Shown here piece by piece: positions 7,389-62,905 of a stretch of DNA of 64,000 bases. Position numbers and translations under genes: made by a program. Origin of the DNA: Octopus vulgaris (taxonomy: Eukaryota); NCBI GenBank assembly GCA_951406725.2, contig OX597814.1, forward strand, positions 14,942,001-15,006,000, written 5' to 3'. Numbering within the stretch: the first letter of the stretch is position 1; the number at the start of each line of letters is the position of its first letter. The notes below the pieces were generated by a model. The model saw nothing but the letters and a program-made list of their open reading frames with translations, made no database searches and was not told the DNA's origin.

Positions 7389-7403
7389 ATGAAGACATCT
7401 ACA
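7389..7403 (+). CDS. IL17: IL-17-like gene A, coding exon 1 (MKTST), phase-0 intron to 9522
   Basis: ttacaATGAAGACATCTACA|GTAAGT. The same micro-exon/donor pattern recurs at 12703, 32671, 36069, 48055 and 62891, and it joins exon 2 in frame. Confidence 0.85.
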
Positions 7404-7929
7404 GTAAGTAAATATACTACAATGATATTATCTGCTATATTTATCTTTGTAATAATATTTTCATCCTACATTAACTAAATATATGTACTGGGGCCATATG
7501 TATACATACACATACATACATGCATGCATACATACATACATACATACATACATACATACATACATACATACATACATACATATATATATATATATATATA
7601 TATATATATATATACATATATATGTATATGTATATGTATATATATTCACTTACCTGTTGATTAGTTTTCGATGCTAATGGGAATTTTCTACTCAAAGTGT
7701 TGTTAATCACAGTTCCAATTTATCTAGAATCGCAGTTGAGTATAAATGAGCAACCATCTGCCAAAGATAATCAATAATACAGTTTTGAACGCTTTCACTC
7801 TTTACAAGGACATGCAACGCAATATATAATCATTGCTTTCACATCACAGAAAAGTGTAAGAGTCTGGCTTGAAACCATATTCACCTTGGCTGACCGAAGT
7901 ACAAAAACTTGGATTCAGTACAGTATTCT

Positions 7930-8292
7930 CAAAAAAAAAAAATAAGCATTTTTAGAGAGTTATAGCCAAAAAAATAGCAAAAAAATGCATTAAAAATGGG
8001 GAAAAAATGATGGTAAATTTTTTTTAAATCGTTGACTCATCGTAGACATTTTTAGAGAGTTACTTCCCTTATATAATAGCGAAAAAATGCATTAAAATGA
8101 AAAAAATGATGGTAATTTTTTTTTAAATCGTAGACTCATCGTAGACGCGCGCTAATACCCAGAAGGGCTCGATATGAATCACGACTATAAGATACCCGGT
8201 TTTGGTTAAACTGCACCGCAAAATGTGGAAGTAGTTAGGAATCTAAATCGTAGGAGACAGACACACAACTTCACTTTTATATATAAAGAAGA
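7930..8292 (-). mobile_element. Helitron/Helentron-like non-autonomous repeat fragment in the gene A intron
   Basis: Terminus ...agacagacacacaacttcacttttatatataaaga resembles 4530-4566; internal subrepeats (catttttagagagtta, aatgcattaaaa). Confidence 0.4.
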
Positions 8293-8889
8293 TATATATG
8301 TTTCTATTCCCTTTGTTCGTACCCCATTTTTTCTCTCATATGTATATATGTGTGTGTGTATATATGTATGTATATATATATATATATATATATATATATA
8401 TATATATATATATATATATAAAATAATATGTTACAATAATTCGATAGTCAAGATAAAACTCTGAGTTTCAGATGCCGAAGTGGAAAACCACAACACCATC
8501 TCTTCGATTATATAATGGGAAATTATTGTGTTATAATTCCGCTACTTATATAAATTAAGATTAAAAGTTCATAGTAAACATTTCCTCTGTTTACATAATA
8601 TCGGGGTCTCTTTCTTTCTTTTGTTATCTTATCGTTTTTACTAATATATATATATATACTTTATTAATAAAGCACATTATTCTACCTCCGGTATTCGAGT
8701 ACTATTTTTCCACCTTGTTTTGTATTTACGGACTAACCCTGGTATATAAGTATATATGCATATATGCATAATCCCCTTTCCGTTCTTTCACTTCCTTTTT
8801 ACTTGACTGAGACCCTTTATATCGACCACTATTGAAAATCTTAATAATTGAGATGTTTTACAAGCAAAAATTTTGAGATTTTTGATTTT

Positions 8890-9308
8890 ACTCTCTTTTT
8901 CTCTTTTTTTACTTGTTTCAGTCATTTGACTGCGGCCATGCTGGAGCACCGCCTTTAGTCGAGCAACTCGACCCCGGGACTTATTCTTTGTAAGCCCAGC
9001 ACTTATTCTATCGGTCTCTTTTGCCGAACCGCTAAGTGACGGGGACGTAAACACACCAGCATCGGTTGTCAAGCAATGCTAGGGGAACAAACACAGACAC
9101 ACAAACATATTCACACACACTTATATATATATATATACATATATACGACAGGCTTCTTTCAGTTTCGGTTTACCAAATCCACTCACAAGGCATTGGTCGG
9201 CCCGGGGCTATAGCAGAAGACACTTGCCCAAGATGCCACGCAGTGGGACTGAACCCGGAACCATGTGGTTGGTTAGCAAGCTACTTACCAAGCAGCCACT
9301 CTTGCGCC
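8890..9308 (-). mobile_element. tRNA-derived SINE, family A
   Basis: Head gagtggct...ggtaagtagcttgctaaccaaccacatggttccgggttcagtccc (A/B boxes); at least 7 copies in the window. Confidence 0.9.
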
Positions 9309-9521
9309 TATTTTCTTTTTTTCCTTTTTTTTTTTGTTTATATTTGTGTTTTCGCGTATCACTTTGGTATTTGTCACCCATTCAACTTTCTGTAATAGAC
9401 TTTCGTAAAGTGTTTCGTTATAAATTTATATATGCGTCGAAAATAAATGAATTTTTTGATTAAGCTGATAAATGTCTCAAATCGAAAGTAACCTTGACAA
9501 AGATATATTTTTCTCTGACAG

Positions 9522-59578: not shown

Positions 59579-60099
59579 ATATATATATATATATATATAT
59601 ATATATATATATATATATTAGAGAGAGAGAGAGAGAGAGAGAGAGAGAGAGAGAGAGAGAGAGAAAGAGAGACAAGTGATTGGAAAAATAAAAGTAAAGG
59701 TCATTCAACATATTTATTAGGATTTAAAGGTTTCATTCTAAACAGTTTCATACGGATTCCGAGTTACTCCAAGCTTTGCAGACCGATACGGAGCCTGTCT
59801 CCTCAGACCAGTAGATTAGCTGAAAAATTTCAGATCTGCCTATACCACCGGCCTGAGGAGATAAGCTTGTTTAGGGACCTGAGAAACGTGAAGTTGCACG
59901 GAATACGAATATACGAATCAAATTAAATTATATATATATATATAATAAATAGATAAAACGAACGGTTTACGGCTGGTAGCTTCCGCTTTCATTTGCCATA
60001 TATCTGCACGGCTGGACAACATAATGGAAGCATCATAGCATCATAATTTCGTAATAGCTATAAAACCGTCAAAATCTTGATTATTTTTATGTTTTTATT

Positions 60100-61145
60100 T
60101 ATTTATTATTAGTGTTGCTTAATATATTTGCTAAAATTTCTGTTTCTTTTCAGACACCATCAGAAAAATGTAATTAAAATTCATTAAAATGACAGATCTA
60201 TCGGATTTTCAAAGAGGTCAAATTGATGGTGCTCCTCTGGCAGGCGCTAGCGTAACGAAAACAGCCAAAGTACTTGGTGTATCAAGAAGTGTTGTCTCGA
60301 AAGTAATGACAGCTTTTGAGAAAGACTAAAAAACTTCCTCGTCGAAACAAAATTAGGAAGGAAATCAAAACATTGAGATAGGGGCCGTCGGACTCTTACA
60401 CGAATTGTTAGAAACGATCACAGAAGTACAGCCCCCAAAATTACTGCAGAGCTTAATGACCACCTCGAGAACCCGGTTTCTACAAAACAATGTTCGCCGG
60501 GAGCTTCACAAACCGTTTAGAGTGGAGTAAAAACCTACAGAATTGGTCCCTAGAGCAGTGGAAGAATGTTAGTTTCTCGGATGAGACATCCTTTACTTTA
60601 TTTCCAACCACCGGCCGAGTATATGTGTGGAGACAGCCAAAAGAAGTAATTGATTCAGACTGCTTTCTTGCAACTGTTAAACATGGAGGAGGATCTGTGA
60701 TGATCGGGGAAGAGGGGGGGCTATATCTTGGAAATACGCCGGCCCAATGGTTTCCCTTCATGGTAAAATTAATAGTCAAGTCTATTGAAGCATTTTATCT
60801 GATCAAATTCATCCTGTGGTTGCGGTGTTTCCGGAGGGAAACGCAATCTTTCGGGTTACCAATTCACACTGCTAACGTTCTTACTGAATGTCACGAGGAC
60901 CATTCTAGTGCAGTTGAACATCTTATCTGGGCGCCACAGTCCGAGATCTCATTATTATCATTGCATTTATGGTGCATTTTAGAAGAAAAAGTAAGGAGTC
61001 GATACCATCACTACAAGAACTGGAGACTATTTTAGCTGAAGAATGGACGAAAATTCCTTTGGAAATACATCAAATTATGTACGAGTCCATACCTCGTAGA
61101 ATTGAAGCTGTAATTACTGCCAAAGTGGTACTATCCCATATTAAT
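60100..61145 (+). mobile_element. Decayed Tc1 (DD34E) transposon
   Basis: MTDLSDFQRGQI...SVTKTAKVLGVSRSVVSKV; QWKNVSFSDETSF...TVKHGGGSVMI; WAPQS; ESIPRRIEAVITAK. Confidence 0.9.
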
Positions 61146-62639
61146 ATATGTATATATATATATATATATATTCGAAGCCAAGAAGCCTATAGACAATAAC
61201 CTATTGGCAAATAACGACATTCTGCATAATCGAACCAGGCGTAACCGAGTATATTGTACGAGTTTGTTTCTGAAAAGTCACCCGACCAGCCACATCTGCA
61301 CCCAAGGATGCATCATAATCAGTTGTATACTATCTCACTTGCGAAGGATCGATGCAAGATGAGTTAAAACGATCGTTGTAATTAATAGAGAATCTCGTGA
61401 ATTCTTGAATTCTATTTTATGCTTCAACGACTACGCAGGAATTCTTGAGGTAGATCCAGTGGGATTTACACTGTGAATGATTTTTGATAGTGATAGACAG
61501 TGAACGTGCTTTAATCGGCATACAGCCATGTGTATACGCACGCTTTAATCAACTTCCTATATATATCAGATAATCCATCGCTTGGTGGTGCACATCATGT
61601 AAGCAGTCAACAAAGGGTCATTTAAAAACTCGAATTAAAGTTTGAAAAGTTTAATGTACTGTGTATAATAATGTATTCTGATATGTCCCGAAACAAAGGT
61701 AGGTACTACGCTGAAGGTCAGAGACATATATATGATATAAACTTTCGTTATATTGTATGTTCTCTATTGTCAGTTAAAACTTTGAGGGAAAACATTATCT
61801 TATATCTGTTATCATCACTTATTTCGTGATGTAATACGTATTTCGTTGGATAGGATGTCATGTATGCTACATTGTGTACAATTATACAATGCCAATCCCA
61901 TTATTCAATGAAAATTTTTGCGAAATTTACGGATGTTTTGTAAAAACGCACACACACACAATATATATATATATATATATATATATATATATATAATGTA
62001 TATATTAAATATATATATATATACATATATATATATCATATATATATTATATATATAATATATATATATATATTATATTATATTATATGTATATATATTA
62101 TATATATATATATATATATATATATATATATACGTATATATATATATATATATCATATATATATATTATATATAATATATATATATATATATATATATAT
62201 ATATATATATATATATATATATATATACAAGGAGAGAGAAAAAGATATATATATATATATATATTTAGAGAGAGAGAGAGAGACACACACACACACGCGC
62301 ACACACGTGATTGGAAAAATATAAGGTCACTCAACACATTTATTAGAAGTTACATGTTTTATTCAAAACAGTTTGGTTGGAGATTCCGTGTTAAAACTGA
62401 TGTTTTACAAATCAAAAGTACACAAGAGACAGGATCGTAATATTTACGTGACTGTTTATGAATAATTAATTTCTTTCGACACCTACTGCACCCATACCGG
62501 GTTGACAGGCTAGTAAACAATAGGTAAAAAATATAACCTTTTATTGTAATACCTGTCCCAATGTACATAATAGCAAATATATGGGTCACGAAAATTTTTC
62601 CACTTACCGATAAGTTTCCTCCGGATTTAAAACCTCAAC

Positions 62640-62760
62640 GGAAGAATGCATTTCCGTCATTTTGCTAGTTCCGCCTCGATATCTATAAATTTCATAATTT
62701 ACGTTAAATATGTCTCATGGGGAAATTCCGTTATGTCTATATACAATATATAAATAAGCA
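62640..62760 (+). promoter_or_regulatory. IL-17 gene D promoter: ATGCATTTCCG motif, NF-kB site GGGAAATTCC (62720-62729), TATA box (~62747-62756)
   Basis: Exact match to the GGGRNWYYCC consensus ~20 bp upstream of tatataaata; same layout as the other IL-17 promoters. Confidence 0.7.
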
Positions 62761-62890
62761 AACTTAGGATAATTGATATCAAAAAGAAAGCAAATCAGAT
62801 CGAGAACTGAGTACAGTCAAGACCCCCTTGAAAAAGTTATATCATATTGCTAAAGTCTTCGTCTTTGTTCCCATTTCAACAAGCCTTACA

Positions 62891-62905
62891 ATGAACATGA
62901 CAAAA
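62891..62905 (+). CDS. Putative IL-17-like gene D, coding exon 1 (MNMTK); exon 2 expected beyond the window
   Basis: ttacaATGAACATGACAAAA|GTAAGT; same length, context and promoter motifs as the other exon-1 copies. Confidence 0.65.

Follow-up and report, generated by a model that had tools for sequence, protein, structure and literature searches.

Tandem families of immune genes are known to evolve by birth and death. In the clustered protocadherin and UGT1A loci of vertebrates, variable first exons, which are many, divergent and all used and which encode most of the variable protein, are spliced to shared constant exons. Micro-exons are at most about 27-51 nt long and usually internal. Among IL-17 genes, an expansion to about 31 members in O. 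bimaculoides and two exons as the commonest plan in mussels are both mentioned in the consulted part of one account (PMC8353272). In the portion of the sea urchin study on which we drew (Buckley et al. 2017, PMC5457136), SpIL17-1 comprises tandem two-exon genes whose first exon encodes Met plus one residue, and SpIL17-4a has alternative first exons, verified by RACE, one coding for five residues and another for nothing but Met. Our literature search, which covered sources other than subscription papers and supplements, yielded no account of octopus IL-17 exon or promoter structure.

The window analysed here, a 64-kb stretch of the Octopus vulgaris genome, contains intact IL-17 paralogs among recent duplicates and pseudogenes, that is, a known gene architecture within a birth-and-death cluster. 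Its contents very probably represent ordinary two-exon IL-17 genes, the extra first exons being debris of duplication, deletion and pseudogenisation. In each gene, splicing would join a first exon, made up of the 5' UTR and five codons, to a large exon 2. Genes A, B and D, together with a head-to-head copy of A to the left of the window, would be the live ones, each transcribed from its own promoter and first exon, here called a cassette. The five codons would provide Met and a charged n-region, the hydrophobic core of the putative signal peptide would lie in exon 2, and the product is predicted from its sequence to be a secreted IL-17 cytokine. The window contains the following features:

1..2288, minus strand, inverted copy of the gene A upstream region (matches 4576-6836)
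600-94, minus strand, promoter fragment without first exon (profile/sequence match)
6243-6740, plus strand, promoter fragment without first exon (profile/sequence match)
6729..7403, plus strand, gene A cassette (TATA-like box 7241, ATG 7389, MKTST, donor GT 7404)
9522..10049, plus strand, intact exon 2 of gene A (remainder of the putative signal peptide, IL-17 domain)
12137..12801, plus strand, orphan A-like cassette (ATG 12703, dead donor)
19464..19994, minus strand, gene B exon 2, intact IL-17 (Pfam, X1 contig)
20826..20885, minus strand, possible non-cassette alternative first exon of gene B (ATG, 19 codons, phase-0 GT)
31579..35004, no strand assigned, tandem copy of 34968-40732 minus its middle 2.36 kb (37354-39717)
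32657..33118, minus strand, duplicate B cassette within the gene B intron (ATG 32671, MKIPT, donor intact)
36055..36516, minus strand, gene B promoter and first exon (exon ~36177-36055, ATG 36069, MKIPT)
38236..38536, minus strand, pseudogene exon 2 of gene C (codon 83 is TGA)
48041..48497, minus strand, dead cassette of gene C (TATA box lost by deletion, ATC in place of ATG)
62428..62905, plus strand, gene D cassette (ATG 62891, MNMTK, intact donor)

The six ttacaAT(G/C)-N12 cassettes of the initial annotation were all found where it had placed them, at 7389(+), 12703(+), 32671(-), 36069(-), 48055(-) and 62891(+), together with the two defects that it had noted: TTCAGT takes the place of the donor in the 12703 cassette, and ATC is read instead of ATG in the 48055 cassette. 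ATG and GTAAGT occur together in four of the six. Homology extends over ~520 bp (54-98% in pairwise comparison) and a profile from which a given cassette had been left out still picked that cassette up (E 2e-15 to 3e-40); the six are paralogous promoters. A profile search of the 64-kb window found no seventh full cassette, and the motif TTACAAT[GC]A-N11-GTAAGT has five matches in the window versus none in 100 shuffles. The aligned promoters supply candidate sites for immune induction. Judged against the consensus, an NF-kB-like site is perfect only in cassette D, at -171; A, B, the duplicate of B and C each have it there with two mismatches, and 12703 has none. It is offered as a lead only.

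Three main exons had been counted, and homologous copies of exon 2 do start at 9522(+), 19994(-) and 38536(-), but the last of these is a pseudo-exon. All three acceptors follow CAG and the exon opens with GTT (Val), bearing out the claim of a phase 0 junction before Val; paralogs share such an intron because they inherit it from one ancestor. Neither tblastn nor DNA and protein profiles detected a fourth copy or remnant in the window; a weak DNA match at 37479-37408 was rejected as AT-rich sequence. Exons A and B match PF06083 with 58.8 and 52 bits (Pfam cut-off 24), and their translations contain the cystine-knot cysteines, the IL-17 pattern of which we take to be CPW, CxC, C, CxC. The exon C remnant (82 aa ahead of the stop) gave no PF06083 match, and its knot cysteines were lost through truncation. 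Exons A and B need a first exon, because no Met occurs in them before residues 124 and 130, respectively. After the MK leader, exon 2 opens with a hydrophobic stretch (maximum 11-residue Kyte-Doolittle 2.9 in A and 2.2 in B). Pfam searches with six repeat-derived ORFs returned no credible domain. A four-point comparison of A to D favoured the grouping of A with D and of B with C in the cassettes (18 vs 13 vs 9 sites); for the exons there were 0, 1 and 1 informative sites in only 81 columns.

Gene A has a close counterpart in O. sinensis XP_029645913 (P0038), which opens with MKTST and then matches exon A at 98%. In the inverted copy of its upstream region, 600-94 is 98.6% identical to 6243-6740, and bases 1-110 of the window match 6731-6840, the start of an A-type promoter. 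The copy leaves the left window edge, close beyond which there is probably an A-type paralog in head-to-head orientation; in RefSeq XP_029646807 (P0037), an A-type exon 2 is joined with an exon whose protein sequence equals that of 864-781(-). The fragment at 6243..6740 (+) stops at the TATA position, adjoins promoter A and has indels in common with the 12703 lineage; it is likely the remnant of a deleted paralog. No exon-2 remnant was found downstream of 12703 on the same strand within the window, and this cassette and the 6243 fragment are probably the leftovers of an A-like paralog minus its coding exon.

Gene C died as a unit, with promoter, start codon and exon together, and its exon 2 is cut after ~100 codons by a fragment of a GIY-YIG-like element. 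The lack of a partner for cassette D is an edge effect, because only 1,095 bases follow its donor at 62905 before the window ends, whereas introns in the window measure 2.1-16 kb. The gene D leader, MNMTK, opens O. sinensis XP_029632966 (P0009), for which no exon of the window is a match (68% at best), and exon 2 of gene D would lie beyond the window end. The surplus of six cassettes over three exons, on which the initial annotation had built its argument, shrinks accordingly to 32671 and 12703: A is intact, B is spliced, C is a dead unit and D meets the window edge. The idea that cassettes duplicate and die independently of coding exons holds for the exon-less 32671, 12703, 6243-6740 and 600-94 and fails for C, which decayed with its exon. 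Promoter pieces were duplicated in the window on three or more occasions with no exon attached, which does count against our preferred explanation, and such copies are the raw material for the shuffling model of the first reading.

The evidence from reads concerns gene B only. The junction into exon B was judged from the loose-end rows listed and the contigs of four runs, which are RNA-like (RNA status is not on record) and drop minor variants. The proposed junction 36055>19994, spanning 16,060 bases, was found by sequence match in two of the four runs (X1 and X2, from one study). The loose end at 19994 is identical to window positions 36055-36084 letter for letter, differing by one base from 32671 and by one to many bases from the other four cassettes; the choice between 36069 and 32671 depends on that one base. 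Two further proposals, 32657>19994 and 48041>19994, were not borne out by the rows and contigs listed: both junction contigs carry the 36069 base, the 32671 diagnostic base being absent from them, and among the junction rows listed there was none from 48041, the loose ends of exon B matching 36069 and not 48055. Depth was 0 in the intron bins 20014-20091 in all four runs. The X5 contig ends at 19995 without a loose end, and none of the contigs listed from X6 reaches 19994, which is evidence in neither direction. The X2 loose end, of 232 nt, exceeds the cassette exon length and counts against the two-exon explanation.

The five codons described as a micro-exon are real and spliced, but in X1 at least 123 nt are spliced onto exon B; this first exon begins ~30 bases past the TATA-like box and is a terminal exon. 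The 3' UTR of gene B runs past 19000 in the same run. Short 90-95% matches (paralogs, repeats) account for an X6 "joint" with 36-nt sides and for loose ends at 19951, 19729-19769 and 19042-19115, none of which was accepted as a junction. The possible exon at 20826..20885 has its homologue in the opening part of XP_029644799, RefSeq isoform X1, and was not among the junctions listed.

Cassettes 32671 and 36069 are two copies from one recent duplication. The 31579..35004 copy differs by ~1.9% substitutions (1.84-1.89% in two parts) and ends in (TA)n tracts, and from these data it is either a recent real duplication or an assembly haplotype. The second reading, in which two alleles, one with a 2.36-kb deletion, were set in tandem and there is only one B cassette, is in our judgement somewhat improbable. 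The layout L-U'-T'-U-X-T-R is what a heterozygous deletion with both haplotypes in tandem would give, every breakpoint touches (TA)n tracts, and the divergence is near the 1.1-1.2% heterozygosity given for O. vulgaris in the consulted parts of PMC6472339 and PMC10700109. However, the divergence is above that genome average and well above the 0-0.5% difference between window and RNA contigs in exon B, there is no N gap in the window, and unequal exchange between (TA)n tracts yields the same layout. This reading is also compatible with the two-exon explanation.

If both cassettes are real, they could be two working promoters of gene B, giving alternative first exons and the same protein, a local addition compatible with our preferred explanation, which we consider unlikely. 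In the 32671 copy the TATA-like box, ATG and donor are all preserved, and its identity with 36069 over 520 bp is 98%; sea urchin IL17-4a provides a precedent for alternative first exons in what we consulted of PMC5457136, and a minor form would be hidden in contigs. On the other hand, the 36069 base is present in both junction contigs, and the 32671 copy lost 2.36 kb of upstream sequence and may not be a locus of its own.

The association of leaders with exons argues for the two-exon explanation across the family. A five-residue leader is present in 33 of 60 database octopod IL-17 proteins, and the seven leader classes need six changes on a tree built from exon 2 only, the minimum possible (500 shuffles of the leaders: mean 12.7 changes, minimum 10). 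The test uses five residues only, with 20 of the 33 in one class, on models that are computed annotation, and for these reasons swaps inside a clade would be invisible; between clades, no shuffling is apparent. MKIPT starts the B orthologs in both O. sinensis (P0025) and O. bimaculoides (P0021), and A-clade models start with MKTS[TR] in the same two species. The promoter shuffling proposed earlier thus finds no echo in these leaders, which follow the exon-2 tree, the B pairing with MKIPT being common to both species.

An exchange of modules apart from their exons, with gene B under two condition-specific promoters, the A upstream region fused to a deleted paralog's promoter, and cassettes re-paired or multiply spliced across the cluster, is in our judgement very improbable; if cross-gene splicing or promoter re-pairing were true, it would be a notable way to diversify a cytokine family. 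The strongest form of the initial annotation, in which any same-strand cassette splices to any downstream exon 2 and promoters are shuffled, draws on the three phase 0 acceptors before Val, the three same-strand cassettes upstream of exon B, the bypassing of a nearer, intact-looking copy by the spliced cassette 36069 and the existence of exon-less promoter fragments, but it is hardly credible given that the sole junction seen into exon B comes from its cognate cassette with no non-cognate one among the rows listed, that cassette 48055 is without TATA and ATG, that leaders fit the exon tree with minimum changes, that the B pairing recurs in O. bimaculoides, and that half of the supposed surplus is window edge or pseudogene.

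It had also been stated that ORF-based annotation misses the first exon. The leader is indeed absent from 27 of the 60 proteins, yet RefSeq has spliced models of both gene A (XP_029645913) and gene B (XP_036370247). Some of the 27 leaderless proteins start inside or past the putative signal peptide. Such models are relevant to the proportion of invertebrate IL-17s reported to be "without signal peptide" (PMC4517768), for which misannotation is suspected in the consulted part of PMC8353272. Octopus IL-17 gene models could be corrected in practice by using the conserved 520-bp block of promoter and first exon as a probe.

Among known systems, the closest are the O. sinensis and O. bimaculoides IL-17-like genes (XP_029645913, XP_036370247, XP_029632966, XP_014769321), orthologs modelled with the same five-residue leaders, whose RefSeq proteins match over exon 2 at 98% for A and 99% for B. 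Several RefSeq octopus models use other first exons, probably wrong or minor, and the protein records do not show the promoter remnants, the dead gene C or the duplicated B cassette, which are visible in the window. Sea urchin IL17-1 and IL17-4a, as far as the consulted text of PMC5457136 goes, are alike in gene plan; there, the alternative first exons of SpIL17-4a differ in sequence and are both expressed, whereas in octopus gene B only one of two near-identical cassettes is seen spliced. Protocadherin and UGT1A resemble gene B of this assembly in that a single exon is preceded by several first exons, each with a promoter. Unlike them, the octopus genes have a first exon of five codons, the same peptide in both B copies and an exon 2 of their own for each paralog, with leaders that track exon-2 clades and, in two of four runs and among the rows listed, a single type of junction into exon B, minor forms being possible. 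Birth-and-death families share with the octopus window its intact paralogs, inverted duplicate, whole-gene pseudogene, orphan fragments and adjacent transposon insertions, and there is no essential difference between them.

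Three copies of exon 2, the main coding exon, lie in the window, each opening with GTT (Val) after CAG, together with six cassettes, each a promoter with a short first exon; all were found where the initial annotation had placed them.

Features of the window, cassettes as read from the sequence
9522-10049, forward: exon 2 of gene A, intact IL-17, above the Pfam cut-off
19994-19464, reverse: exon 2 of gene B, intact IL-17, above the Pfam cut-off
38536-38236, reverse: exon 2 of gene C, dead (stop at codon 83; cut after ~100 codons)
7389, forward: intact cassette (ATG, four codons, GTAAGT)
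32671, reverse: intact cassette, same form
36069, reverse: intact cassette, same form
62891, forward: intact cassette, same form
12703, forward: orphan A-like cassette, dead donor TTCAGT, no exon behind
48055, reverse: cassette with ATC replacing ATG
7389 to 9522, forward: gene A, intron of 2,118 bases; in O. sinensis, XP_029645913 joins MKTST to an exon with 98% identity to A
36069 to 19994, reverse: gene B, intron of 16,060 bases; XP_036370247 joins MKIPT to an exon with 99% identity to B
6243-6740, forward: promoter fragment stopping at the TATA position, indels shared with 12703
600-94, reverse: similar fragment, same stop and shared indels, within an inverted copy
31579-35004: segmental copy of 34968-40732 without its middle 2.36 kb, holding cassette 32671

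The window is AT-rich (34% GC), free of Ns and rich in microsatellites and repeats. The six cassettes can be aligned across ~520 bp at 54-98% identity, and each was recovered by a profile built without it; the profile search of the window returned no further full cassette. The cassette motif occurred five times, against none in 100 shuffles. In all cassettes, conserved blocks lie from about -320 to -140 relative to the ATG (GATAG, GCATTTCCG, AATTCC at about -170, and TATA); we take GATAG to be GATA-like and AATTCC to be an NF-kB-like site, perfect in D only.

We consider it very probable that each live paralog would be transcribed from its own cassette, whose first exon would be joined to that gene's exon 2, yielding a secreted IL-17. 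Such genes would be made and destroyed by duplication, inversion and deletion, in many cases at (TA)n tracts, and by transposon insertion, with promoter debris left behind.

Gene B provides the direct evidence for splicing. Four RNA-like runs, picked from 24 candidates of which 14 contain part of this stretch, were aligned to 19000-20160, and the following holds for the rows and contigs listed. In X1 and X2, from a single study, a contig departs from the genome exactly at 19994, and all 30 letters shown beyond it match 36055-36084, the junction predicted in the initial annotation; the 48055 copy differs at five of them. Read depth was zero in intron bins 20014-20091 in all four runs; the X5 contig stops at 19995 with no loose end, and none of the X6 contigs listed reached the acceptor. 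Since the 123 nt that precede exon B in X1 begin ~30 bases past a TATA-like box, the cassette is an ordinary promoter and first exon (~108 nt of UTR plus 15 coding nt) rather than the micro-exon proposed. The 5' part in X2 is 232 nt long, possibly through an upstream start or an additional exon. At 20885-20826 (reverse), an ATG stretch of 19 codons with a phase-0 donor is homologous to the first exon of XP_029644799 (O. sinensis gene B isoform X1). Exon A lacks a Met ahead of residue 124 and exon B ahead of residue 130, and both open with a hydrophobic stretch; the Met and the signal-peptide n-region are therefore likely contributed by the first exon.

The excess of cassettes over exons stands as a count, but after pairing A, B, C and D only 32671 and 12703 are true extras. 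Cassette 48055 lost its TATA box through a deletion, and its ATG as well, and exon C is also dead, so gene C decayed as one unit. Exon C is interrupted by a fragment 56% identical to ORF 13504-13833, for which an Atlas search points, as a lead, to GIY-YIG clusters (Pfam share 11-33%). GIY-YIG-like retroelement fragments, presumably Penelope-like, occur at 13501-14137 (reverse), 3' of the orphan cassette, and at ~38050-38236 (reverse), cutting exon C. Exon 2 of gene D, the gene of cassette 62891, likely lies just beyond the window, since the D donor sits 1,095 bases short of the window end and XP_029632966 starts with the D leader MNMTK while matching no window exon above 68%.

Both parts of the copy holding 32671 diverge from the original by 1.84-1.89% (microsatellites excluded), and its breakpoints adjoin (TA)n tracts. 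It takes in half a mariner element plus flank, so it is a segmental copy and transposition was rejected as its origin. Two mariner-like elements (39053-40314 and 25457-26704) are ~12% apart, and ORF 39108-39395 (reverse) matches Mos1 transposase (E 2e-15). The copy could have arisen by recent duplication, or it could represent two alleles placed in tandem; heterozygosity in O. vulgaris is given as 1.1-1.2% (PMC6472339, PMC10700109). An assembly artefact is thus a possibility, though we lean against it. That 32671 is a second live promoter seems rather unlikely: the cassette is intact, but it differs from the X1/X2 letters at one base (32678). Either would be compatible with paralogs using their own cassettes.

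Other debris lies at the left edge. Positions 1-2288 are an inverted copy of 4576-6836 (~92%) that continues off the edge into an A-type promoter, with an inner palindrome at 2280-3489. The arms are 98.6% identical promoter-proximally and ~7% diverged further in, and there are hints of gene conversion near these promoters. Three O. sinensis A-type models match at ≥95%, one of them with an exon corresponding to 864-781 (reverse), consistent with a head-to-head A-type paralog, with its own putative exon, just left of the window. The 6243-6740 fragment, of the 12703 lineage, is fused to the start of promoter A (6729-7403) at a TATAT overlap, doubling the region upstream of A; this likely came from deletion of a neighbouring paralog. 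A SINE-like repeat of ~440 bp has many copies (8872-9330, 20160-20500, 27929-28487, 30433-31253, 41761-42182, 54890-55355), one lying just 5' of the acceptor region in each of the A and B introns.

The initial annotation had further proposed that any same-strand cassette could splice to any downstream exon 2. We assembled 60 octopod IL-17s (36 from a homolog search, 24 from cluster look-ups of seven of those), and in 33 a five-residue leader precedes the exon-2 start. On a tree from exon-2 columns alone, excluding the fragments P0032, P0036, P0050 and window exon C, leaders pooled by us into seven classes required six changes, the minimum, against a mean of 12.7 and a minimum of 10 in 500 label shuffles; leaders have only five residues, 20 of the 33 fall in one class, the MKIT class sits on two branches, gene models are computed, and swaps between close paralogs escape the test. 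MKIPT occurs on B orthologs of both O. sinensis and O. bimaculoides, and MKTS[TR] on A-clade models; a four-point comparison within the window gave no clear grouping. General any-to-any splicing is very improbable. The phase-0 junction before Val is a common ancestral intron, and some database paralogs begin exon 2 with another residue.

Annotation was also said to miss the first exon; this applies at most to the 27 of 60 models with other, shorter, longer or truncated starts, but not to the 33 with a leader, A and B included. Those 27 bear on reports of invertebrate IL-17s without signal peptides (PMC4517768).

The expansion of octopus IL-17s is documented (31 genes, cited in PMC8353272; O. 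minor, PMC6279123); the literature searched yielded no description of their promoter structure. Two exons are the commonest plan in mussel IL-17s (PMC8353272). In sea urchin, the IL17-1 genes stand in tandem and have two exons, the first coding for Met and one further residue; the alternative first exons of IL17-4a code for five residues or Met only (PMC5457136). In one octopus clade, models P0014-P0018, P0026, P0028, P0029 and P0023 carry only one or two residues (MD-, MK-) before exon 2, which suggests a shorter first-exon contribution, as in IL17-1. Protocadherin and UGT1A are clusters with variable first exons, whose defining features were not found at the octopus locus, as far as tested. 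The features are real, and they represent a known gene plan within an ordinary birth-and-death cluster.
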